Origin: Trueperaceae bacterium
GTDB taxonomy: Bacteria; Deinococcota; Deinococci; Deinococcales; Trueperaceae
Length of the DNA: 64,000 nucleotides
Assembly (NCBI GenBank): GCA_011390675.1
Contig: JAABRX010000001.1
Location: forward strand, 5,368 to 69,367
Direction: 5' to 3'
Below the pieces are notes generated by a model, which worked only from the letters and a program-made list of their open reading frames with translations, did not search any database and had not been told where the DNA came from. Position numbers and translations under genes: made by a program. This document shows, in pieces, positions 1-14,275 of the stretch (position 1 is its first letter; every line of letters starts with the position of its first letter).

Positions 1-223
1 CATGGCCTCAGCTCCTGCGTCCGCTCGGCCGATCCGGTCGAGGCATCACGATGGCGGCATCATAACCAGGGCTCTGGAGACGCAGGCCCCGCCCAAAGCC
101 GCCCATCGCGCGGCACGAACCTCTTCGGCGGTCGCGAGGCTACGCGCAAGGTCCCGTGGGCGACGGAGCTAGCGAGAAGCCAGCGAACGGAGTCGACGAC
201 GGGGACGGGCTCGGGGACCATCG

Positions 224-239
224 GCCATAACGTTATGGC
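224..239. repeat. 16-bp perfect palindrome GCCATAACGTTATGGC in non-coding DNA upstream of the origin repeats
   Basis: Read directly. Positions 224-239 are self-complementary, with an AT-rich core in GC-rich surroundings. Confidence 0.6.
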
Positions 240-529
240 GTTCGAAGCGCACCACTCGTGCCGAGTACCGCGGGCTCCCCGTTTCGTCCCCGCACTCCGC
301 CGCAGGGGTCGACCTGGTCCCCCATCCTTCCCACGTTCGGCACCCGCACCTCGGCGAACCGGCACGCATCGAACAGCGACGGTCACGGAACGCCAGCGAT
401 CGCGCGATCTGGAGCACTCGCCCGCGCATCGAGGCTTGCGGCTAGCGTCCGGTCGCAGCGCATCGCGGTCACGCACCCCACGCACCACGCGCGAGACCAG
501 CGATCGCGTGCTCGCGCACGCACCGAACT

Positions 530-902
530 GGGGAACGCGGGGGACTCGTGGGTCTCATCGGTGCTTAGCGCGCGCGATGCGGGCCGTACCGATCGTACTT
601 CGAACCCAAGACCGGGGAATTCGCGGGACCGTGCCCGCGGCACGGGGAAGGCGGGGTACCGCTTGACCGGGGAATTCGCGGGACCGTGGCGTTGTCGCCC
701 GTCGGTCCCACGCCTTTCCCGGTTCGCTCGACCAACGGGTACCCAGCGGGACTCGCGCCGTTGGGTGTCGAGCGCTACCCGCGGTCGCCAGCCCGGGTGC
801 GCGGGTCCTCGGATCTCGGATCGCGCTGGAGGCTCCGAACGGGGAACGAGAGGGACTCGAGCCGGATCGCAGGTCCAGCGGGGAATCCATGGGGGTATCG
901 TG
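530..902 (+). repeat. Dispersed family of degenerate ~20-bp direct repeats (GGGGAA, 4-7 nt, GGG(A/T)(C/A)(C/T)CG), including two identical 24-mers
   Basis: Copies read at 530-550, 614-633, 644-660, 669-688, 841-861 and 880-902, plus 1182-1200. GACCGGGGAATTCGCGGGACCGTG occurs identically at 610-633 and 665-688 (55 bp apart). An inverted GGGACCGA core lies at 702-709. Confidence 0.7.
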
Positions 903-974
903 CGCCCGGGAGCTCGGTGGGTGGTCTTCGGGTTCGACCGTGGACGCTTCCGCCGCACACCATGAGCGCCGGAG

Positions 975-1030
975 GCGCGTTCGTGTTGCTTGTACGTTTA
1001 AGGTCTTCCATTACCATTCCCTTTAGGGGG
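975..1030. other. AT-rich island, candidate DNA unwinding element of the origin
   Basis: Hand count gives about 57% A+T over 981-1027 (tcgtgttgcttgtacgtttaaggtcttccattaccattccctttagg), against roughly 30% elsewhere. It lies directly left of the iterons. Confidence 0.55.
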
Positions 1031-1081
1031 GCCCTTCGAGGTCGTGCTGGACGCGCGTGCGACGGCGAACCGGGGAGGCCC

Positions 1082-1190
1082 GGGGACCGAGGCGGGAGCG
1101 GACGGGGACCGAGGCGGGAGAGCAGCGGGACCGATGTGGGGAGGCTGCGGGACCGAGTGGGGAGCGGGGGGGACCGAAATGGGGGAAACG
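1082..1190 (+). repeat. Five tandem ~22-bp iterons with a conserved GGGACCGA core
   Basis: Core GGACCGA starts at 1084, 1106, 1128, 1150 and 1171 (spacing 22, 22, 22, 21 bp). The first two units are identical over GGGGACCGAGGCGGGAG. The array lies ~100 bp upstream of the rep start. Confidence 0.8.
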
Positions 1191-1231
1191 GGGTACTCGC
1201 CGTTCGAGGTTCGTCGCCCATGTGGTGAACA

Positions 1232-1261
1232 TTGACACACGCTTTCCCGCATCCGTATGCT
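1232..1261 (+). promoter_or_regulatory. Sigma70-like promoter of rep (TTGACA, 18 nt, TATGCT)
   Basis: TTGACA at 1232-1237 and TATGCT at 1256-1261. These are followed by the SD GGGAGGAG (1274-1281) and ATG at 1286. Confidence 0.5.
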
Positions 1262-1285
1262 CCGATCGGACGCGGGAGGAGAGCG

Positions 1286-2920
1286 ATGGACGTTCCCACT
1301 TCGAGGCGCCGGGCTGCCGGTGCACCGGCCACGGAGGCCACGGCGGTCGACGCCGCGGTCGGCGACGGCGCTGACGGCAACGGGAGCGGGGTCGACGGCG
1401 GTGGCGACGGTCGGGCCCGCACCAACCCTGCCGCGCCCAGGGCCTCGGGGAGCGCACGGTCGGGCACCCGCGGAGCACGCCCTGCCAAGAGCGCGGCCAA
1501 GAACGCCGCCAAGGGTACGGCGCGTGCCGGTGCCAAGCGCGCGATCGAGCGTCGGAGCGGCGGCCGCGTGTCGGTCACGCAGGCGAACCCGCTGGCGCTG
1601 TCGCGGCAGGAGATGGGGCTCCTGACCAAGCGGCTGCTCGTGCTCGCGCTTTCCGACATCACCCGCGACGACCACGATCTGGAGCCCATCCGGATCACGG
1701 CGTGGGAGTACGCCCAGATCTTCAACATCCGGGGCAAGAGCATCTACAACCGCATCGAGGACAGCGCCCGCGAGCTCCTCGAGCAGACCGTCCAGATCAA
1801 GGAACCCAACGGCGACTGGATCATGTTCCAGTGGGTCTCCGAGGCGCGGTACGACAGCGGTCGCGACAGCAAGGACAAGCTCGCCTGCATCGAGCTCAAG
1901 ATCCACGACAAGCTCAAGCCCTACCTGCTGCAGCTGCGGCGCGACTTCAGCATCATCCCGACGGACCAGCTGCTCAGCTTCGAGTCGTTCAACAGCATGC
2001 GGCTGTTCGAGGTCCTCTACACCGCCAGCTACGGCGGCGAGAAGCGCCACCTCGATTTCGACGTCGACGACCTGAAGCTGCGTCTGGGCCTCGACGGCAA
2101 GTACGAGCGCTTCAAGGACTTCACCTACGTCCTCGACAAGGCTCAGGGCGAGTTCGCCAAGTACACGTCGCTGACGTTCACGTACGAGGGGCGCAAGGTC
2201 GGTCGGAAGTACCAGAACGTCGCGATCGTCATCGAGAAGAACGACGTCTTCCAGCCGCGCGTGCGGCTTCCGGACAGCATCGCCCGGCGGGTGCAGCGCG
2301 AGGGGGACACCGAGGCCCAGCTCCGGGCGCTGCAGGCCGCCGACGCGCTGCGCGACGTCGGCTGGGCGCTCGAGCCCGATCGGAGCGTCGCGCAGCACGG
2401 CGCCCAGCGGGTCATCGACGTCGTGCGCTACGCCCGCTCGCTGCAGCGCAAGTCCGAGCAGACCGGAAGGCCCATCGCGAACCTCGCCGGCTTCGTGCAC
2501 AGCTTGCTGCAACAGGGGATCGAACCGCCGCCCGCTGAGCCGGAGGTCGTCGACGCGCGACTGACGCGCGACGCCGTCCGCGGCATCGTGTCGGGCATCG
2601 TCGACGCCTTCGACCAGCAGCGCCGCGAGCGCGCCAAGGCCGCTTGGGAGGCCCTGAGCGACGACCAGCGCGACCTGGTCCACACGCTCATGCAAGCGAC
2701 CGGCCACCGCTTCACGCTCGAGCGCATCGAGGCCGCGGGGTGGGCGGGGCCGCTGTACGAGGCGAACCGCATCGACGTCTTGCTCAGCCACGGCTTCCTG
2801 ACGCTGCCGCCCTACCTCAGCGACGTGGTCGCCTACGCCGACCACGGCGACCTGCTCGAGGAGTACCCGGCCGAGGACCGCCAACGGTTGCTGAGCGAAC
2901 TCCGCGAGGCAGGTGCCTGA
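1286..2920 (+). CDS. Replication initiator, Rep_3/RepB-like, with a low-complexity N-terminal tail and a long C-terminal extension
   Basis: Track ORF 1232..2920; its TTG start is the -35 hexamer, so ATG 1286 with a strong SD is preferred. The core (LSRQEMGLLTKRLLVLALS, ITAWEYAQIF, SMRLFEVLY, DDLKLRLGL, YERFKDF, VAIVIEKN) follows the layout of Rep_3 winged-helix initiators. Confidence 0.8.
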   Translation: MDVPTSRRRAAGAPATEATAVDAAVGDGADGNGSGVDGGGDGRARTNPAAPRASGSARSGTRGARPAKSAAKNAAKGTARAGAKRAIERRSGGRVSVTQANPLALSRQEMGLLTKRLLVLALSDITRDDHDLEPIRITAWEYAQIFNIRGKSIYNRIEDSARELLEQTVQIKEPNGDWIMFQWVSEARYDSGRDSKDKLACIELKIHDKLKPYLLQLRRDFSIIPTDQLLSFESFNSMRLFEVLYTASYGGEKRHLDFDVDDLKLRLGLDGKYERFKDFTYVLDKAQGEFAKYTSLTFTYEGRKVGRKYQNVAIVIEKNDVFQPRVRLPDSIARRVQREGDTEAQLRALQAADALRDVGWALEPDRSVAQHGAQRVIDVVRYARSLQRKSEQTGRPIANLAGFVHSLLQQGIEPPPAEPEVVDARLTRDAVRGIVSGIVDAFDQQRRERAKAAWEALSDDQRDLVHTLMQATGHRFTLERIEAAGWAGPLYEANRIDVLLSHGFLTLPPYLSDVVAYADHGDLLEEYPAEDRQRLLSELREAGA

Positions 2921-2924
2921 CGCG

Positions 2925-3587
2925 ATGTGCGGGCGGTACACGCTCTACCACGACGAGGAGGACCTGAGCACCCTCTTCGAGCTCGACGCCTTCGCCGTGG
3001 CGCCCCGTTACAACGTGGCGCCCACTCAGACGGTGCCCATCGTCCGGGTGGGGGAGGGCGGTCGACGCGAGCGCGTCGACGCCCGCTGGGGTCTCGTACC
3101 GGGATGGGTGAAGGAGCCCCGAGCGTTCAAGGCGCTGCTCTTCAACGCCCGGTCCGAGACGGTCGCGGAGAAGCCGAGCTTCCGCGACGCCGCGCGGCGC
3201 ACCCGCTGCGCGGTCCCGGCGAGCGGCTTCTTCGAGTGGACCGTCGGCGACGGCGGTCGCAAACAGCCCTGGTACATCCACCGGCGCGACGGCGCGCCGA
3301 TGGTCTTCGCGGGCCTCTACGCCGAGCGCGGCGACGGCGGACCGAGCCTGAGCACGACGATCTTGACGACCGAACCCAACGCGACGCTGGCGGCGCTCCA
3401 CGACCGCATGCCCGTCGTCCTCGACCCCTCGGCGATCGCACGCTGGCTCGACCCCGACCAGCGCGATCCGCACGCCCTCGACGACCTGCTCGTGCCCTGT
3501 CCGGACGCCTGGCTGGAGGCGTACCCCGTCGGTCCGGAGGTCGGGAACGCGCGCGTGGACGAGCCGAGCTTGATCCAGCGGGCCTGA
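2925..3587 (+). CDS. SOS-response-associated peptidase (SRAP; YedK/HMCES-type abasic-site processing protein)
   Basis: MCGRY N-terminus (Cys2 nucleophile if the start is ATG 2925). Motifs: FNARSETV, PASGFFEW, HDRMPVVL. Confidence 0.85.
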   Translation: MCGRYTLYHDEEDLSTLFELDAFAVAPRYNVAPTQTVPIVRVGEGGRRERVDARWGLVPGWVKEPRAFKALLFNARSETVAEKPSFRDAARRTRCAVPASGFFEWTVGDGGRKQPWYIHRRDGAPMVFAGLYAERGDGGPSLSTTILTTEPNATLAALHDRMPVVLDPSAIARWLDPDQRDPHALDDLLVPCPDAWLEAYPVGPEVGNARVDEPSLIQRA

Positions 3588-3610
3588 GCACCCGCGCGAA
3601 GCCGCTTGCC

Positions 3611-4900
3611 TCAGTTCGCGCACGTCGACGGCGCGGGTGCGCCGTTCGTCAGCGCCCACATCCACTCGAGGGAGGCGTCGAAGCCCGCGGGACGGGTGTC
3701 GCGGTGCCGCGCGGTGGGCACGTTCAGGTAGGTCACGGGGCTCCCGGCAGCGCATAGGGCGGCTACGAAGCGCTCCTGGGTGCGATCGAGGACGATGACG
3801 TCCCGTCCGCCTTGCACCACGAGCGCAGGTAGGCCGTGGCCGCTGAGTCCGGTGGCGTTGGCGGCGAGCGCGCGCGCGAAGCCTGGCGCCACCGCGCCCG
3901 GATCGCCGGCCTGCAGCGCGCGATGGAAGGCGTCGGTGTACGTGCCCGCGCCGTCGTACGGGTAGACCTGCTGCGCGCGGTCGACGCAGAAGGCGCCCGC
4001 GTCCTGCTCGAGGGTGGGCACGAAGCGCGGCGCGAGGACCTGCGCCGGGTCGATGGCCTCGCCGTAGACCGACCGGTACGCCAGCAGCACGAACGGCGCG
4101 TAGTACGCCGCGGTGGCGAGCAGCGCCTCGACGTCCGTGGTCGCGGCGAAGCCCATCGCGCCGGCCACCTGCACGTCGGGCGCGTACGACCCGTGCTGGT
4201 CGGCGACCGCGAAGGCGGCGTGGCCCCCTTGCGAGTACCCGCCGAAGAAGGTCTCGGCCCGCAGCCCCCCCAGGGCGCCGGTGCGCGCGTACAGCTCGGT
4301 CATGGCGCGCGCGGCGTCGAGCAGCACGTGCGCCTCGCTGTCCGCGTGGAAGTAGGCCTGCGGTCGGTCGGGGTCCTCGAACCCGAGGTAGTCGGGGAAG
4401 ACGGTGGCGACGCCGCGACCGGCGTACGGGGCGAGCAACTCGCGGTAGTAGCCGAGCGGCGTCGCGCGCTCGTACTCGCGCGATGGGGCGCACGCGTCGG
4501 CGACGCCGGTGGTGCCGGAGCCGTACACCAGCAGCGGTGCCGCGCCGCGCGGCGGGTCCACCGGGGTGAAGGCGCGCGCGCGGACCACCGCCACCTCACC
4601 GTCGAAGCGGGTCGTGGTGAAGCGCAGGAGCCACAGATCGACCGCGTTCTCGACCAGCGGGGCACCGTACCCCCCGAAGGCGACGACGGCGCGCTGGTGC
4701 ACCTCCTGCGGCGTCCAGCGCTCGACGAACACGGCCTCGACGAGGCTCCCTGCCGGCAGGCCGGCGGCGTCGACGGTCGGCGGTGCGACGGGGAGGGGTG
4801 CCTGGGCGAAGGTGGTGGCCGCGAAGGCGGCGGCGACGCTCAGGGCGACGGCAAGCGGCGCGCGGCGGGCGGGGCGTTCGGATCGGGCGGGCTTCGTCAC
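3611..4900 (-). CDS. Secreted alpha/beta hydrolase (secretory-lipase-like), paralog 2
   Basis: C-terminal 429 aa of track ORF 3611..5782. GTG 4900 is preceded by GGAGG. Signal peptide ends AATTFAQAP. Nucleophile elbow is GYSQGG. GTGA overlap with the upstream gene. Confidence 0.75.
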   Translation of the reverse strand: MTKPARSERPARRAPLAVALSVAAAFAATTFAQAPLPVAPPTVDAAGLPAGSLVEAVFVERWTPQEVHQRAVVAFGGYGAPLVENAVDLWLLRFTTTRFDGEVAVVRARAFTPVDPPRGAAPLLVYGSGTTGVADACAPSREYERATPLGYYRELLAPYAGRGVATVFPDYLGFEDPDRPQAYFHADSEAHVLLDAARAMTELYARTGALGGLRAETFFGGYSQGGHAAFAVADQHGSYAPDVQVAGAMGFAATTDVEALLATAAYYAPFVLLAYRSVYGEAIDPAQVLAPRFVPTLEQDAGAFCVDRAQQVYPYDGAGTYTDAFHRALQAGDPGAVAPGFARALAANATGLSGHGLPALVVQGGRDVIVLDRTQERFVAALCAAGSPVTYLNVPTARHRDTRPAGFDASLEWMWALTNGAPAPSTCAN

Positions 4901-6108
4901 GGTGCGACCTCCGGGCAGTCGTCGGCGGGGGGCTGGTCCGCGGCGAGGGCGCGCATCCAGGCGAGCGCGTCGCGGAACCCGATGTAGCGGGTCTCGTGGC
5001 GGGTGCGGAGGTAGTTGGCGTAGCGGACCGGGCTGCCGAGCTCGCACAGACGCTCGACCAGCACGTCCTGAGCGGCGAGCGGCGCCACCGGGTCGTCGAC
5101 CCCCTGGAAGATCGCCACCGGGAGGCCGTGCGGGCGGACGCCGGTGTCGTTCGCGTCGAACAGCGCCCGCCACTCCGGGAAGTCCTCGGCGAGCGTGCCC
5201 CCGAAGAGCGCGGCGTGGAACTCCGGGGTGTACAGGAACGCCGGATCGGCCGGGTAGTGCGCCTGCGCCCCCAGGATGCACAACCGGCGCGCGTCGGCGT
5301 CGAGCGCATCGGCGTAGGCGTCCACGAGGACGTCGTCGCGATCGATCTGGCCCGGGTACGCCGTTTCGAAGGCGCGCACCGCCCACGGGGCGGTGTAGTG
5401 GAACGAGCGGAAGAGCGTGTCGAGGTCGCCGCTCGGCCCGAAGCCGATCGCGCCGGAGAGCGGCACCTCGCGGGCGTAGACCGCCGCTCGATCGGCGGCG
5501 GCGAGGGCGGCGTGGCCGCCCTGGGAGAAGCCGGCCACGAAGGCGTCGGCCACCTCCAGGTTCGGCGCCACGTCGGCGAGGGCATGGGTCGCGGCGCGTA
5601 GGGCGTCCAGGACGACCGTCGCCTCGGCCATCGCCACGAAGTAGGGCTGCACCGAGCCTGGCTCGGTGGCGCCTAGGTAGTCGGGGAGCACGGTGGCGAG
5701 TCCCTGTCCGGCGTACGCGAGCGCGGTCGCTCCGTAGGTCTCGACGCTGCCGCCGCGCAGCCGGACGTTCGTGGGGCTGCACGAGGGGTCGCTGCCGGTC
5801 GAGCCGGGGGCGAACGCGAGCAACGCGTCCTCGGTCGCGGCGCGCGGGACGAAGAGCTGCGCTTGCGCCAGCGCCTCGCCGCCATCGGTCCCGGTCGTCG
5901 CGTAGCGCAGCAGGTAGGTGTCGACGGCCGTGCTGGCCCGCGGCGGGGTCTCGCCGTCCCGGCGGAAGCGGCCGCCGACGGCGCCGTCCACCTGGGCGCC
6001 GGTGAGGGTGCCGAGCGGCTGCACCGACAGCAGCGTCCCCGGGGGGGTCTGCGCGGTCGCGAGGGCGACGAGGAGCACAGCGGCGAGGGCCGCGAGGCGG
6101 CGCCTCAC
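4897..6108 (-). CDS. Secreted alpha/beta hydrolase (secretory-lipase-like), paralog 1
   Basis: 403-aa ORF. Signal peptide is MRRRLAALAAVLLVALATAQT. Nucleophile elbow is GFSQGG. Collinear similarity to 3611..4900 (PDYLG, SQGGHAA). GTGA overlap with the AlgJ-like gene. Confidence 0.75.
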   Translation of the reverse strand: MRRRLAALAAVLLVALATAQTPPGTLLSVQPLGTLTGAQVDGAVGGRFRRDGETPPRASTAVDTYLLRYATTGTDGGEALAQAQLFVPRAATEDALLAFAPGSTGSDPSCSPTNVRLRGGSVETYGATALAYAGQGLATVLPDYLGATEPGSVQPYFVAMAEATVVLDALRAATHALADVAPNLEVADAFVAGFSQGGHAALAAADRAAVYAREVPLSGAIGFGPSGDLDTLFRSFHYTAPWAVRAFETAYPGQIDRDDVLVDAYADALDADARRLCILGAQAHYPADPAFLYTPEFHAALFGGTLAEDFPEWRALFDANDTGVRPHGLPVAIFQGVDDPVAPLAAQDVLVERLCELGSPVRYANYLRTRHETRYIGFRDALAWMRALAADQPPADDCPEVAP

Positions 6109-7178
6109 GGCGTCGGCTCCGCGGTGAGGAACGCGTCGTCGGTCAAGTAGCGCACGGGGACCTCCCAGACGACGGCGCGCGGACGGGCGGAGGCCCAGGC
6201 GTCGCCGTCGAGGTAGTCGAGCAGGGGACGGAGCGGACCGACGCCGGCGCGCGCGGCGTCGAGCACGTCGCGCCCGAGGGCGGTCCGCAAGCGGTCGGCG
6301 AGGTTCCAGCGCGGGTCGGCGGCGTAGCTCGTGCCGACGACCGCCACCGGCAGGTCGACCGCGGCGAACAGGTCGTTCGAGGGCTGGGCGCGGGAGCGCG
6401 CCTCGCTCAGCTCGATCACGTCGGGGTCGGGGGCGAGCGCGTCCTCCAGCGGGCCGAGGTCGAGCAGCCGCACCAGGTCGCCCTCGATCGCCTCGACGCC
6501 GACGAAGTCGCGCTCGAACGCGTCGGCGCCGCCCAGGCCGGGGTCGGCCTCGAGCAACGCGGCAGCGATGGCGTCGGCCGCCGCCTGCGCGCCGGCCGGG
6601 GTCCAGTGCGTGTCGGTGCGGAGCCAGGCGTCCTCACGCAGCGTTGCCAAGGCCGGCCGCAGGTCGACCGCTTGGACGCCCAGGGCGGCGAGGTCGGCCA
6701 AGGTGGCGTCGTAGCGCGCGCGCGCCACCTCGGGGAGCGGCGGTTGATCGGCGTCGACCAGGACGGCCTTGGCCGGCACCAGCGCCACGACGAGCACGAC
6801 CCCCTCGGCCTCGACCCGGGCCGCCGCCGCGTCGATCCGCGCCACCCACGCGTCCCGGTGCCGCTCGGCCGCGGCGGTGGCGGCGTACTCCTCGTCGGTG
6901 AACAGCCAGCCGTCGGCGCCCACCACGACCCCGTCGGGCGCCTGACCGAACACCAGCAGGTCGAGCGCGTTCCAACCGGCGACCGCCCACGGCCGCAGCG
7001 GCGACGCCTCGTCGAGCGATGCTTGGTACGCCGCGGCCCAAGCGCCGGTGCGCACGGGTAGCTCGGGCGCGCGGCGCAGCGCCGGGTTCGCCAGCGTGGC
7101 GGCGAAGCCGAGCGCCAGCACCGCGAGCAGCGCCACGGTGGCGAGCCGCGAGGGGGGGCGCGGGTCGTCGCTGGGCAT
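6105..7178 (-). CDS. AlgJ/AlgX-like SGNH-type polysaccharide O-acetyltransferase
   Basis: C-terminal 357 aa of track ORF 6105..9338. N-terminal membrane anchor. LRTDTHWT motif typical of the AlgJ/AlgX N-domain. Its start overlaps the MBOAT stop (TGATG). Confidence 0.7.
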   Translation of the reverse strand: MPSDDPRPPSRLATVALLAVLALGFAATLANPALRRAPELPVRTGAWAAAYQASLDEASPLRPWAVAGWNALDLLVFGQAPDGVVVGADGWLFTDEEYAATAAAERHRDAWVARIDAAAARVEAEGVVLVVALVPAKAVLVDADQPPLPEVARARYDATLADLAALGVQAVDLRPALATLREDAWLRTDTHWTPAGAQAAADAIAAALLEADPGLGGADAFERDFVGVEAIEGDLVRLLDLGPLEDALAPDPDVIELSEARSRAQPSNDLFAAVDLPVAVVGTSYAADPRWNLADRLRTALGRDVLDAARAGVGPLRPLLDYLDGDAWASARPRAVVWEVPVRYLTDDAFLTAEPTP

Positions 7179-8584
7179 CAGAAGCGGAAGTAGAGGAACG
7201 GCGAGGCGGTGTCGGCGAGCGCGCGGCCGACGCCCAGGACGAAGAGCGGGACGAGGAGCGCGACCCGCGGCGCGGCGAGCGCCAGACGCGGCCGGGTCGC
7301 CGGCTGGCCGGACGGTCGCGGGACGAAGGCGAGCGCCAAGCCGATCGCGAGCGTCGCGAGGGCGCGGGGCTCGAGCTGCCACGCGAGCTCGCCGGTCACC
7401 GGGAACCCGTGCGCGCCCACCAGGCCGCCGAGCATCGCGAGCGCCGCGGGCAGGCCCTCCGCGCGGAAGAGCACCCAGCCGAACAGCACCACGGCGAAGG
7501 TGCCGACGGTGCCGAACGCTCCGGGCCACGCGGGGCGGTCGCCGCGGACGCCGCGCAGCCGCTCGGCGATGAGCCACGCTCCGTGCCACGCCCCCCAGAG
7601 CACGAAGGTCCACGCCGCGCCGTGCCACAAGCCTCCCAGGAGCATGACGAGCGCGAGGTTGCGGTAGGTGCCCAGCGGGCCGCGGCGGTTGCCACCCAGG
7701 GGCACGTAGAGGTAGTCGCGCAGCCAGGTGGAGAGGCTGATGTGCCAGCGGCGCCAGAACTCGGTGATGCTGCGCGCCTGGTACGGCCGGTCGAAGTTCT
7801 CGGGGAAGCGGAAGCCGAGCATCCGGCCGAGGCCGATCGCCATGTCCGAGTACCCGGAGAAGTCGAACAGGAGTTGCACCGCGAAGGCGAGCAAGCCCAG
7901 CCACGCTTCGGCCGCGCTCGGTGCCGCGAGCGCGAAGGCGCCGTCGGCGATGGGGGCGACCGCGTCGGCGATCAGCACCTTCTTGACGAAGCCGAGCATG
8001 AAGCGCTCCGCCCCGGCGGCGAACGCCGCCCGGTCGATGATCGGCGCGGCGAGCCGGTCGGCGATCGTCTTGTAGCGGACGATGGGCCCCGCGATCAGCT
8101 GCGGGAAGAGCGCGATGTAGGCGGCGACGTCGACCGCCCGCGCGTCGTCCGGCGCGTCGCGGCGCGCGACGTCCACCACGTAGCTGATCGCCTGGAACAC
8201 GTAGAACGAGATCCCGATCGGGAGCACGACTTCCAGGAGCGGCAGCGGCCGCACCCCGACGCCGTCGAGCAGCGCGTTCAGGCTGGCGACGCCGAAGTCG
8301 GCGTACTTGAAGTACGCGAGCGTCGCGAGCTGCGCGCCCACGCCCCACGCGAGCGCGCGCCGCCCGGAGGGCGTACCGCGCCCGCGCGCGACGGCGCGGC
8401 CGGCCGCGATCGCGAGGAGCGACGACAGCGCGAAGACGAGCGCGAAGTCGGGGCGCCACCAGGCGTAGAAGGCGTACGAGCCCACCAAGATGGCCAGCGT
8501 GCGCCGCTGCGGCGGAAGCAGCGCGTACCCCGCCAAGAAAACCGGCAGGAACAGGAACAGGAAGACGGTGGAGGTGAAGACCAC
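7178..8584 (-). CDS. MBOAT-family O-acyltransferase (AlgI/DltB/PatA-like)
   Basis: 468-aa polytopic ORF. Motifs: FWRRWHISLSTWLRDYLYVPLGGN and GGLWHGAAWTFVLWGAWHG. Confidence 0.9.
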   Translation of the reverse strand: MVFTSTVFLFLFLPVFLAGYALLPPQRRTLAILVGSYAFYAWWRPDFALVFALSSLLAIAAGRAVARGRGTPSGRRALAWGVGAQLATLAYFKYADFGVASLNALLDGVGVRPLPLLEVVLPIGISFYVFQAISYVVDVARRDAPDDARAVDVAAYIALFPQLIAGPIVRYKTIADRLAAPIIDRAAFAAGAERFMLGFVKKVLIADAVAPIADGAFALAAPSAAEAWLGLLAFAVQLLFDFSGYSDMAIGLGRMLGFRFPENFDRPYQARSITEFWRRWHISLSTWLRDYLYVPLGGNRRGPLGTYRNLALVMLLGGLWHGAAWTFVLWGAWHGAWLIAERLRGVRGDRPAWPGAFGTVGTFAVVLFGWVLFRAEGLPAALAMLGGLVGAHGFPVTGELAWQLEPRALATLAIGLALAFVPRPSGQPATRPRLALAAPRVALLVPLFVLGVGRALADTASPFLYFRF

Positions 8585-8599
8585 GCCCCGACCCCGCGG

Positions 8600-9259
8600 T
8601 TATTCGCCGGCGGCGGTCAGCACGAACGCGACGATGCCGTCGGCGGTCGTGGTCGCGACGACCGCGTACGCGACGCCGCGCTCGAAGGTGCGGGCCTCGA
8701 GGCGCGCGACCACGGTGCCGCCGTCCACGACCACCAGCTCGGTGGTCGCCTCGGCGACGGCGACCGCGTCGTGGGCGCCCGGCGGCACCGCGGCGACCAC
8801 GGTCGGCCCATCGGGCACCTGGAGGTCGAGGCCCTCGCGCTCGGTCAGGTTCACGAGCCCGAGCAGGCCGCGCGAGATGTCGCGCAGCCCCGGGTCCGGC
8901 ACGACGACCACGCCGTCGCTGGTGGCGGCGACGGTGGTGAAGGACTCCGGACCCACGTCGAGCGTGACGGCGTCGCCGCCCACGTCCAGGCGCACCGGAC
9001 CGGGCGCCACGAGGGCGTAGCGGGTCGCATCGAAGAGCGCCAACACCCGCGTGCTGCCGTCGGCGATGCGCACGGCCACGCCGCCTTCGGCACCGATGTT
9101 GACGACGCGCACCCATGCGGCTTCGACGGGGGCTTCGGGGCCGTAGAGGCCACCGTGGGCGGAACCGATGAGCGCCGCGAGCGTCAGCAGCGCCGGGAGC
9201 GCGAGCGCGCCGCGGCGTTGGGCGCGGGGGCGGGGGAGGGGCGAGTCGTCCATGCGCAC
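8600..9259 (-). CDS. Periplasmic AlgF-like protein (tentative)
   Basis: 219 aa with a signal peptide. The mature N-terminus GLYGPEAPVEAAWVRVVN resembles, from memory, the LYGP..AP start of Pseudomonas AlgF. It lies 15 nt upstream of the MBOAT gene. Confidence 0.45.
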   Translation of the reverse strand: MRMDDSPLPRPRAQRRGALALPALLTLAALIGSAHGGLYGPEAPVEAAWVRVVNIGAEGGVAVRIADGSTRVLALFDATRYALVAPGPVRLDVGGDAVTLDVGPESFTTVAATSDGVVVVPDPGLRDISRGLLGLVNLTEREGLDLQVPDGPTVVAAVPPGAHDAVAVAEATTELVVVDGGTVVARLEARTFERGVAYAVVATTTADGIVAFVLTAAGE

Positions 9260-9415
9260 GACGGTATCCGATGCGGATGAGGCGGACCTCGCCGCGGGTT
9301 GCGAATCGTGTCGGCCACCTCACACCATGCCGTAGCAAATGCGGTACCGTAGCAATTCAGGTACTCGTTCACCCGCGCTCACCCGCTTCGTTTCGCTCCC
9401 GCCCCGGAGGACTTC

Positions 9416-9685
9416 ATGACCGCCACGCTCACCACCGCCGCCATGCTGCTCGTTCCGTTCCTGGCCGTCGTGCTGATCGGTGCCGTAGCGGTCGCGATCC
9501 ACGACGCGATCGAGCGGGCGTGGGCGGGTCGTACGACCTCGGCGAGCATGGGGGCGAACGCGTCGGCGGCGCGTCGGCCGGTCGCGCTTCGGGGGGATCA
9601 CCGGCGAGGTGCCCCCGTCGTCCTGGCCCGCTCGGCGTCGACGCGGCGTCCGGAGCGGCGCGCGCCGGTGGCGCTGGTTCGCTGA
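9416..9685 (+). CDS. Small hypothetical membrane protein (89 aa)
   Basis: ATG is preceded by GGAGGA. N-terminal hydrophobic helix (AAMLLVPFLAVVLIGAVAVAI). Very high third-position GC in this frame by hand. Confidence 0.4.
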   Translation: MTATLTTAAMLLVPFLAVVLIGAVAVAIHDAIERAWAGRTTSASMGANASAARRPVALRGDHRRGAPVVLARSASTRRPERRAPVALVR

Positions 9686-9811
9686 GCGAGGGGCGCTGGG
9701 CGGCGCTGCGCGCCGTCGACCGCGAGCCGGACGACGCGGTGGAGCTGCTCGTGTTCGCGCGTCGGCTCGGTGGCCGCACGCTGGCGCCCCGTGCGCGGGC
9801 TGCTGCCCCCC

Positions 9812-9817
9812 TACACT
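9812..9817 (+). promoter_or_regulatory. -10-like TACACT, 6 nt upstream of the ligA ATG (candidate leaderless promoter)
   Basis: TACACT-gacgtc-ATG read directly. No SD. Confidence 0.4.
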
Positions 9818-9823
9818 GACGTC

Positions 9824-11914
9824 ATGCCCGACGCCCCCCCTCCCGCGGACGCCGCCGCCCGCGCCGCCGAGCTCCGCCGCGCGATCGCGCACCACGACCG
9901 GCTGTACTACCAGGACGACGCCCCCGACATCAGCGACGAGGCGTACGACGCGCTGTGGCATGAGCTCAAGGAGCTCGAGGCGGCCCATCCCGAACTCGTG
10001 ACGCCCGAGAGCCCCACCCAGCGGGTCTCGGGGACGCCGCTCGACGGCCTCGAGAGCGCCGAGCACGTCGCCCCCATGCTCAGCCTCGACTCCAGCGCCA
10101 AGGAGGAGGCGTTCCGCCAGTTCGACGCGCGCCTGCGCAAGGCGCTCGGCGACGACGTCCCGCTGCGCTACTCGCTCGAGCCCAAGCTCGACGGGTTGTC
10201 GATCGAGCTCGTCTACGAGGGCGGCCGCCTGACCCGCGCGGTCACCCGCGGCGACGGACGCACCGGCGAGGTCATCACGGCGAACGCGCGCACCATCCGC
10301 TCGCTGCCCCTCGAGCTCGACGGCTCGGTGCGGCCGTTGCCGCCGCTGCTCTCGGTGCGCGGCGAGGTGTTCTTGGCGCTGCAGGCCTTCGACGACGTCA
10401 ACGAGCGCTTGATCCAGGAGGGCAAGCCGCCCTTCGCCAGCCCCCGCAACGTCGCCGCGGGCACGGTGCGCCAGCTCGACCCCGCGCTCGCTGCCTCGCG
10501 CCCGCTCTCGGTGTACGCCTACGACGTCCTCGAGGCGGGCGCTGGCGACGATGGCCACGGAGCGCTCGCGACCCACACCGAGGTGCTCGCGGCGATGCGC
10601 GACTGGGGTCTCCCCGTCAACCCCGAGAACGCGCTCGCGGACGACGCCGATGGGGTGTGGCGTGCGTTCGAGGCGTTCGCCGAGCGCCGCGACCACCTGC
10701 CGTACGAGGTCGACGGCCTGGTCGTCAAGCTCGACGACCTCGCCGCCCGGCGGCGCCTCGGCACCACCGCCCACCACCCGCGCTGGGCGTACGCGATCAA
10801 GTTCGCGCCGCGCAAGGAGGTGAGCCAAGTGCTGCGGATCATCGCCAGCGTCGGGCGCACCGGCGTGGTGACGCCGGTGGCGCTCCTGCGGCCGGTGAAC
10901 ATCGGCGGCGTGACGGTCGCCCGCGCCAACCTGCACAACCGCGAGGACGTCGAGCGCAAGGACATCCGCGAGGGCGACACGGTTCGCGTCGAGCGCGCGG
11001 GCGACGTGATCCCCCAGGTGATCGAGCGGATCGAGGTCGCCGGCGCCGAGGAGCGTGGCGCTCCGTTCCGGATGCCCGAGCGCTGCCCCAGCTGCGGCAC
11101 CGAACTGGTCGCGCGAGGCCCCTACAGCCTGTGCCCCAACGCCTTCGGCTGCCCGGCGCAGGCCGTGGCGCGGCTCGTGCACTTCGGCAGCCGCGCAGCG
11201 CTCGACGTCGAGGGTCTGGGGGAGGTCACGGCGCGACTGCTCGTCGAGGAGGGGCTCGTGAAGGAGCTGCCCGATCTGTTCGACCTGCGCGCGGCCGACT
11301 TCGAGCGGCTCGAGGGGTTCGCCGAGCTCTCGGCTGCGAACCTCGAGGCGAACGTCGCGAAGGCGGCGGCCACGACCCTGCCGCGCTTCCTGGTGGCGCT
11401 CGGCGTGCCCGACACGGGTCCTGCGGTGGCGCGCACCCTAGCCGGGCGGTTCGGGAGCGTCGAGGCCCTGCGCGCCGCCGACGCCGACACGCTGGCCGCC
11501 GTGCACGGCATCGGCCCGATCATGGCCGAAGCGATCGCCGGCTTCTTCGCCGACCCCAAGAACGCGCGCGTCGTCGACGCGCTCCTCGACGGGCGCGTGC
11601 AGGTGGCACCCTTCGAGGTGGTCGCACCGGCCTCCGACGCGCTCGCAGGCACCACCCTGGTCTTCACCGGCGCGCTGGAGCGCTTCACTCGCGGCGCCGC
11701 CGAGGCGCTCGTGGCCAAGCTCGGCGGCAAGGCGGCCAGCAGCGTCAGCACCAAGACCACCCTCGTGGTCGCCGGCGCCGATGCCGGCAGCAAGCTCGAG
11801 AAGGCCGTGGCGCTCGGGGTGCCGGTCGCCGACGAGGAGGGCTTCCTCGCCTTCCTGGAGGAGCGCGGGGTGGCGCCGGGCGAGGTCGCAGCGTTGGTCG
11901 GAGGTGCCGAATGA
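9824..11914 (+). CDS. ligA: NAD-dependent DNA ligase
   Basis: Adenylation motif EPKLDGLS. Zn finger CPSCGTELV..CPN..CPAQ. HhH region and C-terminal BRCT (TLVFTGALERFTRGAAEALV). Internal ATG 9824 of track ORF 9770..11914 chosen. Confidence 0.95.
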   Translation: MPDAPPPADAAARAAELRRAIAHHDRLYYQDDAPDISDEAYDALWHELKELEAAHPELVTPESPTQRVSGTPLDGLESAEHVAPMLSLDSSAKEEAFRQFDARLRKALGDDVPLRYSLEPKLDGLSIELVYEGGRLTRAVTRGDGRTGEVITANARTIRSLPLELDGSVRPLPPLLSVRGEVFLALQAFDDVNERLIQEGKPPFASPRNVAAGTVRQLDPALAASRPLSVYAYDVLEAGAGDDGHGALATHTEVLAAMRDWGLPVNPENALADDADGVWRAFEAFAERRDHLPYEVDGLVVKLDDLAARRRLGTTAHHPRWAYAIKFAPRKEVSQVLRIIASVGRTGVVTPVALLRPVNIGGVTVARANLHNREDVERKDIREGDTVRVERAGDVIPQVIERIEVAGAEERGAPFRMPERCPSCGTELVARGPYSLCPNAFGCPAQAVARLVHFGSRAALDVEGLGEVTARLLVEEGLVKELPDLFDLRAADFERLEGFAELSAANLEANVAKAAATTLPRFLVALGVPDTGPAVARTLAGRFGSVEALRAADADTLAAVHGIGPIMAEAIAGFFADPKNARVVDALLDGRVQVAPFEVVAPASDALAGTTLVFTGALERFTRGAAEALVAKLGGKAASSVSTKTTLVVAGADAGSKLEKAVALGVPVADEEGFLAFLEERGVAPGEVAALVGGAE

Positions 11915-13722
11915 CGGTCCCCAGGGCGTTCTCGAACGCGGTCGTCGCCGCGCGCCTCGAGCGGCTGGCCGACCTGCTCGAGCTCTCCGGCGCCAACCCG
12001 TTCCGGGTGCGCGCCTACCGCACCGCCGCCGCCACCGTCGAGGCGCACCCCGAGCGCGTCGGCGACCTCGTCGCGCGCGATGCGCCGCTCACCGACCTCA
12101 AGGGGGTGGGGAAGGACATCGCGGCCGCGATCGCCGCGCTCTACGCGACGGGCGCCATCCCCGCCTTCGACGAGCTCGCCCGCGAGGTGCCGCTGGGGCT
12201 GCTCGACGTGGTGCAGGTGCCGGGCGTCGGGCCCAAGCGCGCGCGTTCGCTCTGGAAGGACCTCGCGGTCACCAACCTCGACGACCTCGAGCGCGTGGCC
12301 ACCGAAGGCAAGGTCGCCGCGCTCGCCGGCTTCGGCGCCAAGACCCAGGCGAAGGTCCTCGCGGGCGTCGCGCAGGTGCGGCGCCGCGCCGGGCGCCGGC
12401 GGCTGGGCGACGTCGATGCTTGGTTGCGGCCGCTGCTCGCGGCGCTGCGGGCCGTGCCCGGCGTGCGCCGCATCGAGGTCGCGGGCAGCGTCCGGCGCGG
12501 CCGCGCCACCATCGGCGACGTCGACCTGCTCGCGGTCGCCGACGACGGCGCGGCGCTCATGGCCGCCCTGCGCGAGCACCCGGACGTCGCCGAGGTACTC
12601 GGAAGCGGCGCGACCAAGACCAGCGTCCGGTTGGAGGGCGACCTGCAGGTCGACCTGCGGGTGGTGCCCGAGGAGAGCTTCGGCGCCGCCTGGCAGTACT
12701 TCACCGGCTCGAAGGCCCACAACGTCGCGCTGCGCCAGCGCGCGATCGAGCGGGGGCTGCGGCTCAACGAGTACGGGGTGTTCCGGGGCGGCGAGGAGGG
12801 CGCGGACGCCGAAGCGGGCGCCGACCCGCAGCGCGGCGAGCGCGTCGCCGGCGCCGACGAGGCCGAGGTGTACGCCGCGCTGGGCCTGGAGTGGATCCCG
12901 CCGGAGCTGCGCGAGGACCGCGGCGAGGTGGCGCAGGCCGCCGACGGCCGCCTGCCGCGCCTGCTGGCGCAGGACGACCTGAAGGGCGACCTGCACCTGC
13001 ACTCCACGTGGTCCGACGGCAAGGGGGACGTGCGCGCGATGCGCGCGGCCTGCTCCGCCAAGGGGTACGCCTACCACGGCCTCACCGACCACTCGCAAGC
13101 CCTGAAGATGACCGGGGGCCTGGACGCCGCCAAGCTCGAGCGCCAGTGGGCCGAGCTCGACCAGGTCGCTGCGGAGGAGGCCGAGGCCGGCGCACCCATG
13201 CCGGCGCTGCTGCGCGGGCTGGAGGTCGACATCCTCAAGGACGGCACGCTCGACCTCGACGAGGCGTGGCTCGCGCGCCTCGACCTGGTGATCGTCTCGG
13301 TGCACGGGCACTTCGACCTCCCCGAGGCGGAGCAGACGGCGCGCATCGTCAAGGCGCTGCAGCACCCGCGGGTGAACGTGCTCGCGCACCCGACGGGGCG
13401 CCTGCTGGGCGAGCGCGAGGGGTACGCCGTCGACCTGGATGCGATCTTCGAGGTGGCGGCGGCGCATGGGGTGGCGATCGAATGCAACGCCTCGCCGTAC
13501 CGGCTCGACCTCGGCGACGTGGAGCTCGCCCGCGCGGTCGCGGCCGGGTGCACCGTGGTGGTGAACTCCGATGCCCACTCGGTCGCCGGGCTCGACGTGA
13601 TGCCGTACGGCGTGGTCACGGCCCGGCGCGCGGGCCTGGGGCCGGAGCACGTGCTCAACGCCTGGAGCGAGGCGCGGGTCCGGGCGTTCCTGACCAAGGG
13701 CGACGGGCCCGACCGCTCCTGA
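11911..13722 (+). CDS. polX: Family X DNA polymerase with C-terminal PHP domain
   Basis: In frame of track ORF 10657..13722. HhH motifs (LKGVGKDIA, VPGVGPKRA). Catalytic GDVDLLAVADDG. PHP motifs (HLHSTWSDG, LTDHS, NSDAHS). ATGA overlap with the ligA stop. Confidence 0.9.
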   Translation: MTVPRAFSNAVVAARLERLADLLELSGANPFRVRAYRTAAATVEAHPERVGDLVARDAPLTDLKGVGKDIAAAIAALYATGAIPAFDELAREVPLGLLDVVQVPGVGPKRARSLWKDLAVTNLDDLERVATEGKVAALAGFGAKTQAKVLAGVAQVRRRAGRRRLGDVDAWLRPLLAALRAVPGVRRIEVAGSVRRGRATIGDVDLLAVADDGAALMAALREHPDVAEVLGSGATKTSVRLEGDLQVDLRVVPEESFGAAWQYFTGSKAHNVALRQRAIERGLRLNEYGVFRGGEEGADAEAGADPQRGERVAGADEAEVYAALGLEWIPPELREDRGEVAQAADGRLPRLLAQDDLKGDLHLHSTWSDGKGDVRAMRAACSAKGYAYHGLTDHSQALKMTGGLDAAKLERQWAELDQVAAEEAEAGAPMPALLRGLEVDILKDGTLDLDEAWLARLDLVIVSVHGHFDLPEAEQTARIVKALQHPRVNVLAHPTGRLLGEREGYAVDLDAIFEVAAAHGVAIECNASPYRLDLGDVELARAVAAGCTVVVNSDAHSVAGLDVMPYGVVTARRAGLGPEHVLNAWSEARVRAFLTKGDGPDRS

Positions 13723-13846
13723 GCGGCGCAGCATGAAGGCGAAGGGGCGCTGTGTTCACCGCTCGTTCACGGCGCGCGCGCCTCGGCGTGTCATCATCCC
13801 ATCGGCGCCGCCGCGACCCACCGGGGTCCCCGCCCGCCGTTCGACC

Positions 13847-14275
13847 ATGCCCAAGGCCCTGCGACCCCACCCCACGCCCCGGCGCGCCGCGGCGTGGACC
13901 GTCGTCGTGGCGTGGGCGGCCGCCGTCGCGGCCGCCGCCGGACTCGTCGGCACCCCGTACGACCACGTCGCCGACGCCTTGCTCGAGCACCTGCACGCGG
14001 AGCGCGTCGCCTGCCCGGTGGCGGTCGGCGAAGCGACCGTGTGCTTCGTCGTCGAACCGGGGCGTGCCGCACCGCTGGCCGAGGCGCTCGACGCCTTCGT
14101 CGCCGACCACGCCGGCGCGCTGGAGGTCGGACCGTGGCACTCGGGCAACGGCGCCCACCGGGTCACGCTGTACTGGGACGACGACCTGTGGGGCGGCCTC
14201 GAGGTCTGGTTCGCCGAGCACGGCGCGACCCGCGTCGAAGGCCGGTTCGAACACGTCGCGAAGCGCCGCGATTGA
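13847..14275 (+). CDS. Hypothetical membrane-anchored or secreted protein (142 aa)
   Basis: Internal ATG of track ORF 13733..14275. Hydrophobic N-terminus (AAAWTVVVAWAAAVAAAAGLV). Third-position GC above 90% by hand. Confidence 0.5.
   Translation: MPKALRPHPTPRRAAAWTVVVAWAAAVAAAAGLVGTPYDHVADALLEHLHAERVACPVAVGEATVCFVVEPGRAAPLAEALDAFVADHAGALEVGPWHSGNGAHRVTLYWDDDLWGGLEVWFAEHGATRVEGRFEHVAKRRD

Follow-up and report, generated by a model that had tools for sequence, protein, structure and literature searches.

A predicted glycan O-acetylation cassette that joins an AlgF-MBOAT-ALGX relay to paired LIP-family hydrolases in Trueperaceae and spirochaetes

Relays of an MBOAT acyl translocase and an SGNH-type partner acetylate peptidoglycan, teichoic acids, alginate and cellulose, with consequences for lysozyme resistance, autolysin control and the properties of biofilms. 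Here we describe a set of five genes in which such a relay shares an operon with two predicted secreted hydrolases of the LIP family. It lies on a 64 kb stretch of DNA from a Trueperaceae bacterium (GCA_011390675.1, contig JAABRX010000001.1, positions 5,368-69,367 of the forward strand), which we refer to as the window and whose own numbering is used below.

The closest described systems are AlgIJFX of the alginate producers Pseudomonas and Azotobacter, WssFGHI of Pseudomonas fluorescens, Bordetella and Achromobacter, and the peptidoglycan O-acetylation (OAP) cluster PatA-PatB-Ape1 of Neisseria and Campylobacter. In PatA, the tyrosine of an FxYxxF tail is auto-acetylated from acetyl-CoA and the acetyl group is then passed to the SGNH partner; this route was demonstrated for PatA/PatB and has been proposed to be general for bacterial MBOAT-SGNH pairs (PMC12148441). 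AlgF has no esterase or other enzymatic activity, and its binding partners are AlgJ and AlgX (PMC10641220). WssF is a presumed analogue of AlgX, and WssI alone acetylates cello-oligomers (PMC10302187). The OAP cluster is characterised by its orphan position and by an esterase gene within the operon (PMC1199599, PMC12148441).

With a G+C content of ~74% in the window, open reading frames (ORFs) alone are weak evidence of genes. A third-position GC plot and the translations revealed five successive coding frames on the minus strand between 3611 and ~9259, all with third-position GC values of 0.94-0.97. With the start of the first gene corrected, the operon block spans 3611-9253 and holds the following genes:

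8600-9253, minus strand: gene A, AlgF-like, 217 aa; PF11182 (AlgF) 69.6 bits, cut-off 34.4
7178-8584, minus strand: gene B, MBOAT, 468 aa; PF03062 (MBOAT) 114 bits
6105-7178, minus strand: gene C, AlgJ-like SGNH-like protein, 357 aa; PF16822 (ALGX) 223 bits
4897-6108, minus strand: gene D (LIP1), alpha/beta hydrolase, 403 aa; PF03583 (LIP) 55.9 bits, cut-off 23
3611-4900, minus strand: gene E (LIP2), alpha/beta hydrolase, 429 aa; PF03583 (LIP) 50.4 bits, cut-off 23

All five scores exceed the curated cut-offs. Genes A and B are separated by TAA, 15 nt and GTG, B and C share TGATG, and the C/D and D/E junctions each consist of GTGA; the GTG starts of D and E are preceded at Shine-Dalgarno distance by GGAG (8 nt upstream) and GGAGG (7 nt upstream), respectively. 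The operon is bordered by a convergent SRAP gene (2913-3587, plus strand) and a divergent LigA gene (9770-11914, plus strand). A scan of 3300-9900, including the inside of the operon, found no sigma-70 consensus or terminator, and an Rfam search of positions 1-14000 gave no match, so that there is no evidence for an internal terminator, riboswitch or leader RNA. When all proteins of an alginate locus (L009), a wss locus (L023) and a Rhodobacterales locus (L011; loci of our scans are cited by number) were searched against the window by tblastn, the only matches were genes A, B and C, with no homologs of alginate, cellulose or flippase genes and none of BcsB, BcsC and GH8 of L023. On the basis of this search we rejected the idea that the window holds a genuine alginate or cellulose system. 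Outside the operon, its 20 largest genes are unrelated and code for PolX, ABC transporters, an Mrp antiporter, enzymes of metabolism and cyclic di-GMP (c-di-GMP) signalling proteins. The five-gene set was found again in more than 60 independent loci, which puts it far beyond chance.

Gene A is predicted to be a periplasmic AlgF-like adaptor with a signal peptide and two tandem beta-sandwich domains. Its start at ATG 9253 follows from a database protein that is likewise 217 aa long and 100% identical. A phmmer search aligned residues 35-204 with both domains of P. aeruginosa AlgF (6CZT; E 2.5e-12), and the AlphaFold2 (AF2) model, a tandem beta-sandwich with a mean predicted local distance difference test score (pLDDT) of 87, matched the N- and C-domains of AlgF (6CZT/6D10) in Foldseek with template modelling (TM) scores of 0.81/0.82 and a root-mean-square deviation of ~2 Å. 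The model also resembles the extracellular domains of PepT1/PepT2, which are likewise among the reported structural neighbours of AlgF itself (PMC10641220). The N-terminus forms a hydrophobic signal-like segment without a lipobox Cys.

Gene B is assigned by sequence to the MBOAT acyl translocases of the AlgI/PatA/WssH type. Following published motif definitions, the catalytic His (F-W-R/N-R-W-H; PMC1199599) corresponds to His281 within WRRWH, and the FxYxxF shuttle tail (PMC12148441) to a C-terminal FLYFRF that carries Tyr465. The tail, PFLYF[RQ]F, is invariant among the gene B orthologs of 34 loci. Gene B groups with the acetyl translocases AlgI, WssH and PatA at 43-55% identity. D-alanylation was considered and rejected, as gene B scores 159 bits against an NCBIfam DltB cut-off of 375 and dltA/dltC-like genes are lacking. 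No NCBIfam equivalog was found for A, C, D or E.

Gene C appears from its sequence to be a membrane-anchored AlgJ-like SGNH-like acetyltransferase. It matches AlgJ (4O8V) in phmmer with an E of 9e-47 and aligned motifs, namely ALVPAK at 132-137, RTDTHW at 187-192 (Asp189 and His191) and GTSY at 282 (Ser284), which correspond to the AlgJ signature motifs PhiPhiPhiPxK and (R/K)TDTHW and to its GTSY with the catalytic Ser (PMC4148444). Residues 9-34 form an N-terminal membrane anchor. No PatB-type match was obtained, and the only sequence relatives of solved structure at E<=1 were AlgJ and AlgX.

Genes D and E are predicted to encode secreted Ser-Asp-His alpha/beta hydrolases of the LipA/CalA type, with a helical cap in the model of D. 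The two proteins are 36% identical. The triads are Ser195/Asp339/His371 in D, with a GFSQGG nucleophile elbow, and Ser223/Asp367/His399 in E, with GYSQGG; both N-termini are hydrophobic and signal-like without a lipobox Cys. In D numbering, Ser195, Asp339, His371 and four Cys are invariant across 36-40 sequences and 14 paralog copies, and the possibility that D and E are pseudoenzymes was rejected on the invariance of the triads. A structural model was made of D (AF2, pLDDT 94.7), and the fold of E is predicted from its identity to D. In Foldseek, the model of D matched Xanthomonas oryzae pv. oryzae (Xoo) LipA (3H2K) over its full length (E 3e-23, TM 0.75-0.77), Legionella lpg1103 (4EZI; TM 0.76/0.82) and Candida antarctica lipase A (CalA, 3GUU; TM 0.67). 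Xoo LipA and Xylella LesA, both "cell-wall degrading" esterases (PDB 3H2G), lpg1103 and CalA have the full-length fold, the triad with a GxSQGGH-type elbow and secretion in common with D and E, but share just 17-19% sequence identity with them; they are secreted for virulence or lipolysis and stand alone, with no known genetic tie to an MBOAT acetylation module. LipA and LesA act on C4 esters and not on C10 esters, and the carbohydrate-binding module of Xanthomonas LipA is required for virulence (PMC4709584, PMC4329599).

Much of this had been anticipated by a sequence-only reading of the stretch. Its five coupled minus-strand genes, with junctions of a 15-nt gap, TGATG, GTGA and GTGA, are read exactly so from the sequence, and the alginate polymerase and export genes that it noted as absent nearby are not found by homolog searches of the window either. 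Its family calls agree with our results, for the AlgF-like first gene in both sequence (E 2.5e-12) and fold, for an AlgI/PatA-type MBOAT in the PF03062 score, His281 and the FxYxxF tail, for an AlgJ/AlgX-like SGNH protein with TDTHW in the PF16822 score and RTDTHW, and for two signal-peptide alpha/beta hydrolases in the GFSQGG and GYSQGG motifs and the PF03583 matches. An origin in Deinococcota, here Trueperaceae, was borne out. The AlgF-like gene itself also stands, but not its limits of 8600-9259, as the GTG start proposed at 9259 lies two codons upstream of ATG 9253.

Exact-sequence look-ups of proteins C and D gave no indexed contig, and gene contexts were therefore read from orthologs. 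In order to follow the set across genomes, gene C was queried against one genome per species, which yielded eight Trueperaceae-type loci in metagenome-assembled genomes (MAGs) and 28 proteobacterial loci. All six Trueperaceae-type loci with enough flank have the order AlgF-MBOAT-ALGX-LIP(-LIP). Orthologs of D, at 92% to 48% identity, always stand directly after AlgF-MBOAT-ALGX and occur in at least four unrelated neighbourhoods:

Neighbourhood 1: beside LigA/PolX and SRAP/Rep3/ParAB
Neighbourhood 2: after a BlaI/BlaR1-like pair
Neighbourhood 3: beside a divergent M23 peptidase gene and a DUF218 gene
Neighbourhood 4: beside a GerE-type regulator and rpsT

A wider, profile-free LIP search gave 73 representative clusters at E<=1e-30, two of which (35-38% identity) have ALGX-MBOAT-AlgF on one strand and LIP-LIP divergent on the other. 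A metagenome scan with the LIP alignment then added 79 loci, which were scored with iterated profiles; 50 were informative, and the remainder were truncated. The informative loci fall into four classes:

Type I, AlgF-MBOAT-ALGX-LIP-LIP, co-directional with the LIP genes downstream: 12 loci
Type II, LIP-LIP-AlgF-MBOAT-ALGX, co-directional with the LIP genes upstream: 13 loci
Type III, divergent: 22 loci
LIP alone, with both flanks informative: 3 loci, all at 32-36% identity

AlgF, MBOAT and ALGX genes thus stand beside a related LIP gene in 47 of the 50 informative loci, and in 100% of those at >=37% identity. The organism-named relatives of type II and III LIP proteins are Spirochaetota MAGs in ten of ten cases, and three type III loci match named proteins of Spirochaetia or Spirochaetales at 100% identity. 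The set is therefore not confined to Deinococcota, and rearranged versions are found in Spirochaetota. Every carrier that we recovered is an uncultured MAG or a contig from a metagenome.

A neighbour-joining tree of 49 LIP domains, computed without bootstrap, separated copy 1 and copy 2 into two clades, each with Trueperaceae and spirochaete members and with congruent branching. The unlinked LIP proteins of L048, L121 and L125 fall outside both clades, and that of L104 nests within the copy 1 clade. The order of copy 1 followed by copy 2 is kept in all three arrangements. The two paralogs hence appear to go back to an old duplication retained in Deinococcota and Spirochaetota; a recent lineage-specific duplication was rejected, since both clades span both phyla. 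Clustering of all flanking ORFs of 32 linked loci gave no further recurrent family other than a generic, distant ABC ATPase several kb away and lineage-specific synteny. Together with the linkage, this indicates that the five genes are the whole conserved unit, which was probably assembled once and carried between the two phyla.

Some lineages differ in detail. In L037 there is a single LIP gene of the D type, and since the sister lineage has both copies, E was lost secondarily there. In L041, a long-read-style contig, the E-type LIP gene (6228-7544) loses similarity in its last third and the remainder is found in a second ORF (6844-7533) in another frame, probably an assembly frameshift rather than a pseudogene. 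In L038 (3886-6826, and the same in L039), genes for a BlaI-like repressor (Penicillinase_R) and an 853-aa BlaR1-like M56 sensor-protease immediately precede AlgF, 46 nt away and in the same orientation. This is a hint that an antibiotic or envelope signal may induce the cassette in that lineage. A divergent gene for an M23 peptidoglycan endopeptidase adjoins the cassette in L037 (5814-6470) and L042 (5082-6561, with DUF218), a weak, single-lineage pointer to the cell wall.

The C-side scan also recovered several proteobacterial modules with which the cassette can be compared:

L009, alginate locus: AlgE, AlgG, AlgI, AlgJ, AlgF, AlgX with carbohydrate-binding module, AlgL
wss operons: BcsB, GH8, BcsC, WssF, WssG, WssH, WssI
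L010-L012, Rhodobacterales modules: AlgF-MBOAT-AlgJ-AlgX' beside flippase-like and sulfotransferase genes
Bare MBOAT+ALGX pairs: Acetobacteraceae and a Rickettsiales MAG

The cassette matches AlgIJFX in its MBOAT with catalytic His and FxYxxF tail, its anchored AlgJ-type protein and its tandem beta-sandwich AlgF, and genes B and C are 50% and 34% identical to AlgI and AlgJ of the true alginate operon L009. The gene order is F-I-J here and I-J-F in the alginate system. AlgIJFX further contains AlgX, a second ALGX-family protein that acts as terminal transferase and has a C-terminal carbohydrate-binding module, whereas the cassette of Deinococcota and Spirochaetota has two LIP alpha/beta hydrolases instead. 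Iterated profiles run on six-frame ORFs detected no second ALGX-family ORF in the window or in any LIP-linked locus; the same ALGX profile does detect AlgX' in L009-L012 and L014. While AlgIJFX sits in the alg8/alg44/algK/algE/algG/algL operon, no alginate biosynthesis genes (polymerase, porin, epimerase or lyase) were found in 32 related loci.

The order of AlgF-like, MBOAT and AlgJ-like genes in WssFGHI (G-H-I), as in L023, is identical to A-B-C, and both systems have four or more parts including an extra periplasmic protein of unsettled role. This extra protein is the small upstream SGNH-like WssF in the Wss system, and in the cassette it is the LIP pair, placed downstream, upstream or divergently. 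A WssF profile matched the Pseudomonas, Herbaspirillum and Bordetella loci and none of the LIP-linked loci. The wss loci have cellulose synthase genes (bcs/wss) adjacent, which the cassette lacks. In the Rhodobacterales modules, the first three genes have the same order as the cassette and the AlgJ-like gene is immediately followed by a fourth gene for a periplasmic protein; this gene, however, encodes a second ALGX-family protein and not a LIP, and the module is joined to a polysaccharide locus.

With the OAP cluster the cassette shares its orphan position, seen in the at least four unrelated Trueperaceae-type neighbourhoods and in the spirochaete loci, as well as the combination of an MBOAT, an extracytoplasmic serine-triad transferase and an operon-encoded hydrolase-family protein. 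It differs in that its transferase belongs to the ALGX family and is not PatB-type, that D and E have the alpha/beta LIP fold while Ape1 is an SGNH/CE3 esterase, and that it has an AlgF adaptor and two hydrolase paralogs. The sequence-only reading had likened the locus to patA-patB-ape, with non-SGNH hydrolases in the esterase position and an AlgF-like third component added to the acetyltransferase pair. The third component is present as gene A, and the orphan, hydrolase-linked layout and the alpha/beta fold of D and E are upheld, but AlgIJFX and WssFGHI are closer comparators. An esterase slot is moreover an assumption, as in these two systems the position is held by a second SGNH-like protein that is probably a transferase. 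Having neither AlgX, WssF, PatB/Ape1 nor polymer genes, the cassette falls outside the alginate, Wss and OAP systems, yet by analogy it would plainly work like them.

In these comparisons, AlgF is present with an extra periplasmic partner, be it AlgX' (L009-L012, L014), WssF (Pseudomonas, Herbaspirillum, Bordetella) or LIP (all Trueperaceae and spirochaete loci), and absent from five loci with MBOAT and ALGX only. The pattern is suggestive and covers about six independent lineages (about four against two), with one exception (L036) and one ambiguous case. The latter, L013 (7012-12290) from the Rickettsiales MAG, has an AlgJ-MBOAT pair in reversed order preceded by genes for a 729-aa alginate-lyase-domain protein and a 196-aa ORF without Pfam match; AlgF is not detectable in this locus, unless the 196-aa ORF represents a highly diverged form of it, which is possible. 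Since a second ALGX-family or WssF-like protein is missing, the LIP proteins are the sole candidate partners for the AlgF of the cassette. The names "AlgF", "MBOAT" and "lipase family protein" already stand in databases through automated annotation, and in the literature we found no paper on the five-gene set or on a link between the LIP family and MBOAT acetylation modules.

We tentatively posit, at somewhat less than an even chance, that the five genes are a self-contained cassette that controls how an extracytoplasmic glycan, itself synthesised by genes elsewhere, is O-acetylated. The sequence comparisons establish the families of the five proteins, their intact catalytic and shuttle motifs, the topology of signals and anchor, the coupling within the operon and an exceptionally robust linkage in evolution. 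In the proposed mechanism, B would take the acyl group, presumably acetyl, from cytoplasmic acetyl-CoA, with His281 as the base loading Tyr465 of FLYFRF on the outer side of the membrane. Protein C would accept the acetyl group on Ser284 of its Asp189/His191/Ser284 triad and then transfer it to sugar hydroxyls. These steps are modelled on the work on PatA/PatB and AlgIJFX. A would be non-catalytic and serve as a scaffold joining C with periplasmic partners, most plausibly D and E acting on the same acetyl esters. As short-chain carbohydrate esterases, D and E would trim or recycle the modification, like Ape1 on O-acetyl peptidoglycan, and as two old paralogs they may differ in specificity. By analogy, de-O-acetylation in editing or turnover seems likelier as the role of the LIP proteins than terminal transfer, because the characterised relatives are all hydrolases, the nearest ones are short-chain, carbohydrate-directed esterases, and the OAP operon is a precedent for joining transferase and esterase. 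The lack of a polymer synthase and the unrelated genomic places in two phyla suggest that the target is most likely a housekeeping wall glycan, with peptidoglycan first and a secondary cell-wall or S-layer-anchoring glycan second.

Several points weigh against this proposal. The evidence for every member comes from sequence and structure prediction, and our view of the genome covers 64 kb, so that an exopolysaccharide locus may lie elsewhere. The characterised ALGX-family proteins act on exopolysaccharides, namely alginate and cellulose, and not on peptidoglycan (PMC10641220, PMC10302187, PMC4148444). OAP clusters lack AlgF, which in our sample occurs only with a further periplasmic partner, and this fits a relay partner no less than a free esterase. 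A translationally coupled enzyme that undoes the product looks wasteful, though patB-ape1 is a precedent. Finally, the M23 and BlaR1 neighbours are confined to single lineages.

It is possible, though rather unlikely, that the cassette decorates a secreted exopolysaccharide made elsewhere, alginate-like, cellulose-like or other, with the LIP proteins tuning or removing its acetylation. The exopolysaccharide substrates just cited extend to the characterised AlgF proteins, and the identities of B and C to AlgI and AlgJ of a true alginate operon point the same way. The proteobacterial module also joins varied polysaccharide loci (alginate, cellulose, flippase/sulfotransferase), and the replicon carries many c-di-GMP signalling genes, often controllers of exopolysaccharides. 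Yet the proteobacterial module lies inside the polymer operon, whereas here no synthase, export or glycosyltransferase gene stands beside it in the 32 loci, across three arrangements and two phyla, or anywhere in the window. Such an orphan position is a hallmark of the peptidoglycan OAP cluster (PMC1199599).

The LIP proteins might instead be the last step of the relay, taking acetyl from C while held by A and passing it to the glycan, as a non-homologous replacement of AlgX/WssF; two paralogs would then serve two positions or two acceptors. We consider this unlikely, but it is the principal rival to de-O-acetylation as the role of the LIP proteins. Both characterised AlgF systems are four-part, with AlgF binding AlgJ and AlgX, and WssF has been proposed as the equivalent (PMC10641220, PMC10302187, PMC4148444). 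The co-occurrence of AlgF with an extra periplasmic component and its absence from the five bare pairs fit such a role, as does the Rhodobacterales order AlgF-MBOAT-AlgJ-AlgX', which is that of Trueperaceae with AlgX' in the LIP slot, and no LIP-linked locus has a second ALGX-family or WssF-like ORF. CalA-related enzymes of the LIP family are among the few hydrolases that perform acyl transfer in water (PMC7383625), and "Ape2", an esterase by sequence, turned out to be the transferase PatB (PMC6174289). However, the characterised LIP/LipA members are all hydrolases in vivo (PMC4709584, PMC4329599), and CalA-type transfer uses long-chain donors, with ethyl acetate inhibiting CpLIP2 (PMC7383625). 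An extra transferase is also not required, as WssI acts alone (PMC10302187) and two-gene MBOAT+ALGX modules exist (L016), and the AlgF correlation comes down to some four against two independent lineages, with the exception of L036 and the ambiguous L013. We are more doubtful still about the fuller version, in which the LIP proteins are glycan O-acetyltransferases of alpha/beta-hydrolase fold that displaced AlgX/WssF, or one transferase and one matching esterase, in a cross-phylum system on a housekeeping wall glycan such as peptidoglycan.

That D and E are ordinary secreted lipases or esterases for nutrient uptake, merely carried on a shared transcript, is very improbable. The Pfam name "secretory lipase", the database names "lipase family protein" and "acetyl esterase/lipase" and the distant members that stand alone (L048, L104, L121, L125) would suit such a role. 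The linkage in 47 of 50 informative loci, however, extends over two phyla, three arrangements and identities of 35-100%, the module has been inherited together with both paralog clades while the unlinked L048, L121 and L125 fall outside them, and neighbouring genes overlap at their start and stop codons. Among solved structures, the nearest is that of a carbohydrate-binding esterase for short chains and not of a triacylglycerol lipase, so that D and E are probably not the separately transcribed triacylglycerol lipases that the sequence-only reading had weighed against its own proposal: D is nearest to the short-chain esterase LipA, and the linkage is kept in all three arrangements. Equally improbable is an MBOAT that moves another acyl group, such as a longer fatty acyl, with the LIP proteins handling fatty-acyl esters on a glycolipid or lipoglycan, for although acyl donors in the MBOAT superfamily are diverse and LIP-family enzymes of the CalA branch favour long chains (PMC7383625), B shares 43-55% identity and the FxYxxF tail with the AlgI/WssH/PatA-type acetyl translocases among which it groups, genes for a carrier protein or ligase, such as dltA/dltC, are missing, C is an AlgJ-type acetyl handler, and D is nearer to short-chain LipA than to CalA.

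The surroundings of the cassette hold further features, beginning with the region from which the operon would be controlled:

9254-9415, no strand assigned: putative control region upstream of both gene A and a small divergent ORF

On its minus strand, this region has two copies of TTGCTACGG (9347-9355 and 9330-9338), which are 17 nt apart and overlap the near-palindrome TACGGTACCG. L040 and L041, which are syntenic, keep the TTGCTACGG/TACGGTACCG block ahead of the cassette in the form of the perfect palindrome CTACGGTACCGTAG; the TACGGTACCG/CTACGGTACCGTAG block is a candidate operator for a regulator. The small divergent ORF between the cassette and LigA (9416-9685, plus strand, 89 aa) is preceded by the ribosome-binding site GGAGGA, is hydrophobic at its N-terminus and has no Pfam match on record. 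Its counterpart is called as a gene in L040 (6411-6680). At the other end, the stops of gene E and the SRAP gene are 23 nt apart in the window (3588-3610), compared to ~2.3-3.3 kb in the close relatives L040 (12530-15752) and L041 (7621-9870). The extra stretch there encodes a protein of 750-780 aa that matches no Pfam family, joined in L040 by a fragment of a CitMHS transporter; the difference is an indel, in either direction.

The start of the window looks like a plasmid-type replication origin. Ahead of a gene for a Rep3-family initiator (PF01051/PF21205; 1232/1568-2920, plus strand) stand iteron-like repeats at 22-nt intervals, with GGGGACCGAGGCGGGAGC at 1082 and 1104 and a third, related copy within a 35-nt repeat (1138-1172; repeat region 1072-1172). 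A perfect 24-nt direct repeat starts at 610 and 665 (610-688), and in relatives ParA/ParB lie just beyond. The presence of the NAD-dependent DNA ligase LigA and of PolX on the same replicon suggests a chromid or secondary chromosome. The synteny Rep3-SRAP-cassette-LigA-PolX is kept down to 52% identity of D (L045). SRAP is the SOS-response associated peptidase, an abasic-site sensor; its gene (2913-3587, plus strand) overlaps the end of the Rep3 gene (stop 2920) by 8 nt, and the pairing is kept in L040, L041 and L045, a conserved coupling of initiator and DNA-damage protein. A megablast search of PLSDB with positions 1-12000 of the window returned as sole match a 296-bp MBOAT stretch in Azospirillum, and tblastn with D returned just weak Acinetobacter lysophospholipase matches; no PLSDB plasmid carries the five-gene system. 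Genes for signalling by c-di-GMP, a common controller of surface polysaccharides, are dense in the 64 kb (15250-18258, minus strand; 41387-44539, plus; 49900-51339, minus; 51375-54506, minus; 54677-57364, minus) and encode three large PAS/GAF-GGDEF-EAL proteins and two of the HD-GYP type (HD_5), one of these with PAS and GAF.

According to our analysis, the cassette is a conserved and portable version of the acetylation relay, with five proteins and no attached polymer pathway, in two phyla whose envelopes are poorly studied. It provides the first genetic tie of bacterial LipA/CalA-type "lipases" to glycan acetylation. This tie suggests a native function for a widespread family and possibly a new class of carbohydrate esterase or acyltransferase. 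The cassette is also a natural experiment on the role of AlgF-type adaptors, as the partner of AlgF cannot be AlgX here. Should the LIP proteins prove to be transferases, they would represent a non-homologous replacement within an otherwise conserved acyl relay.

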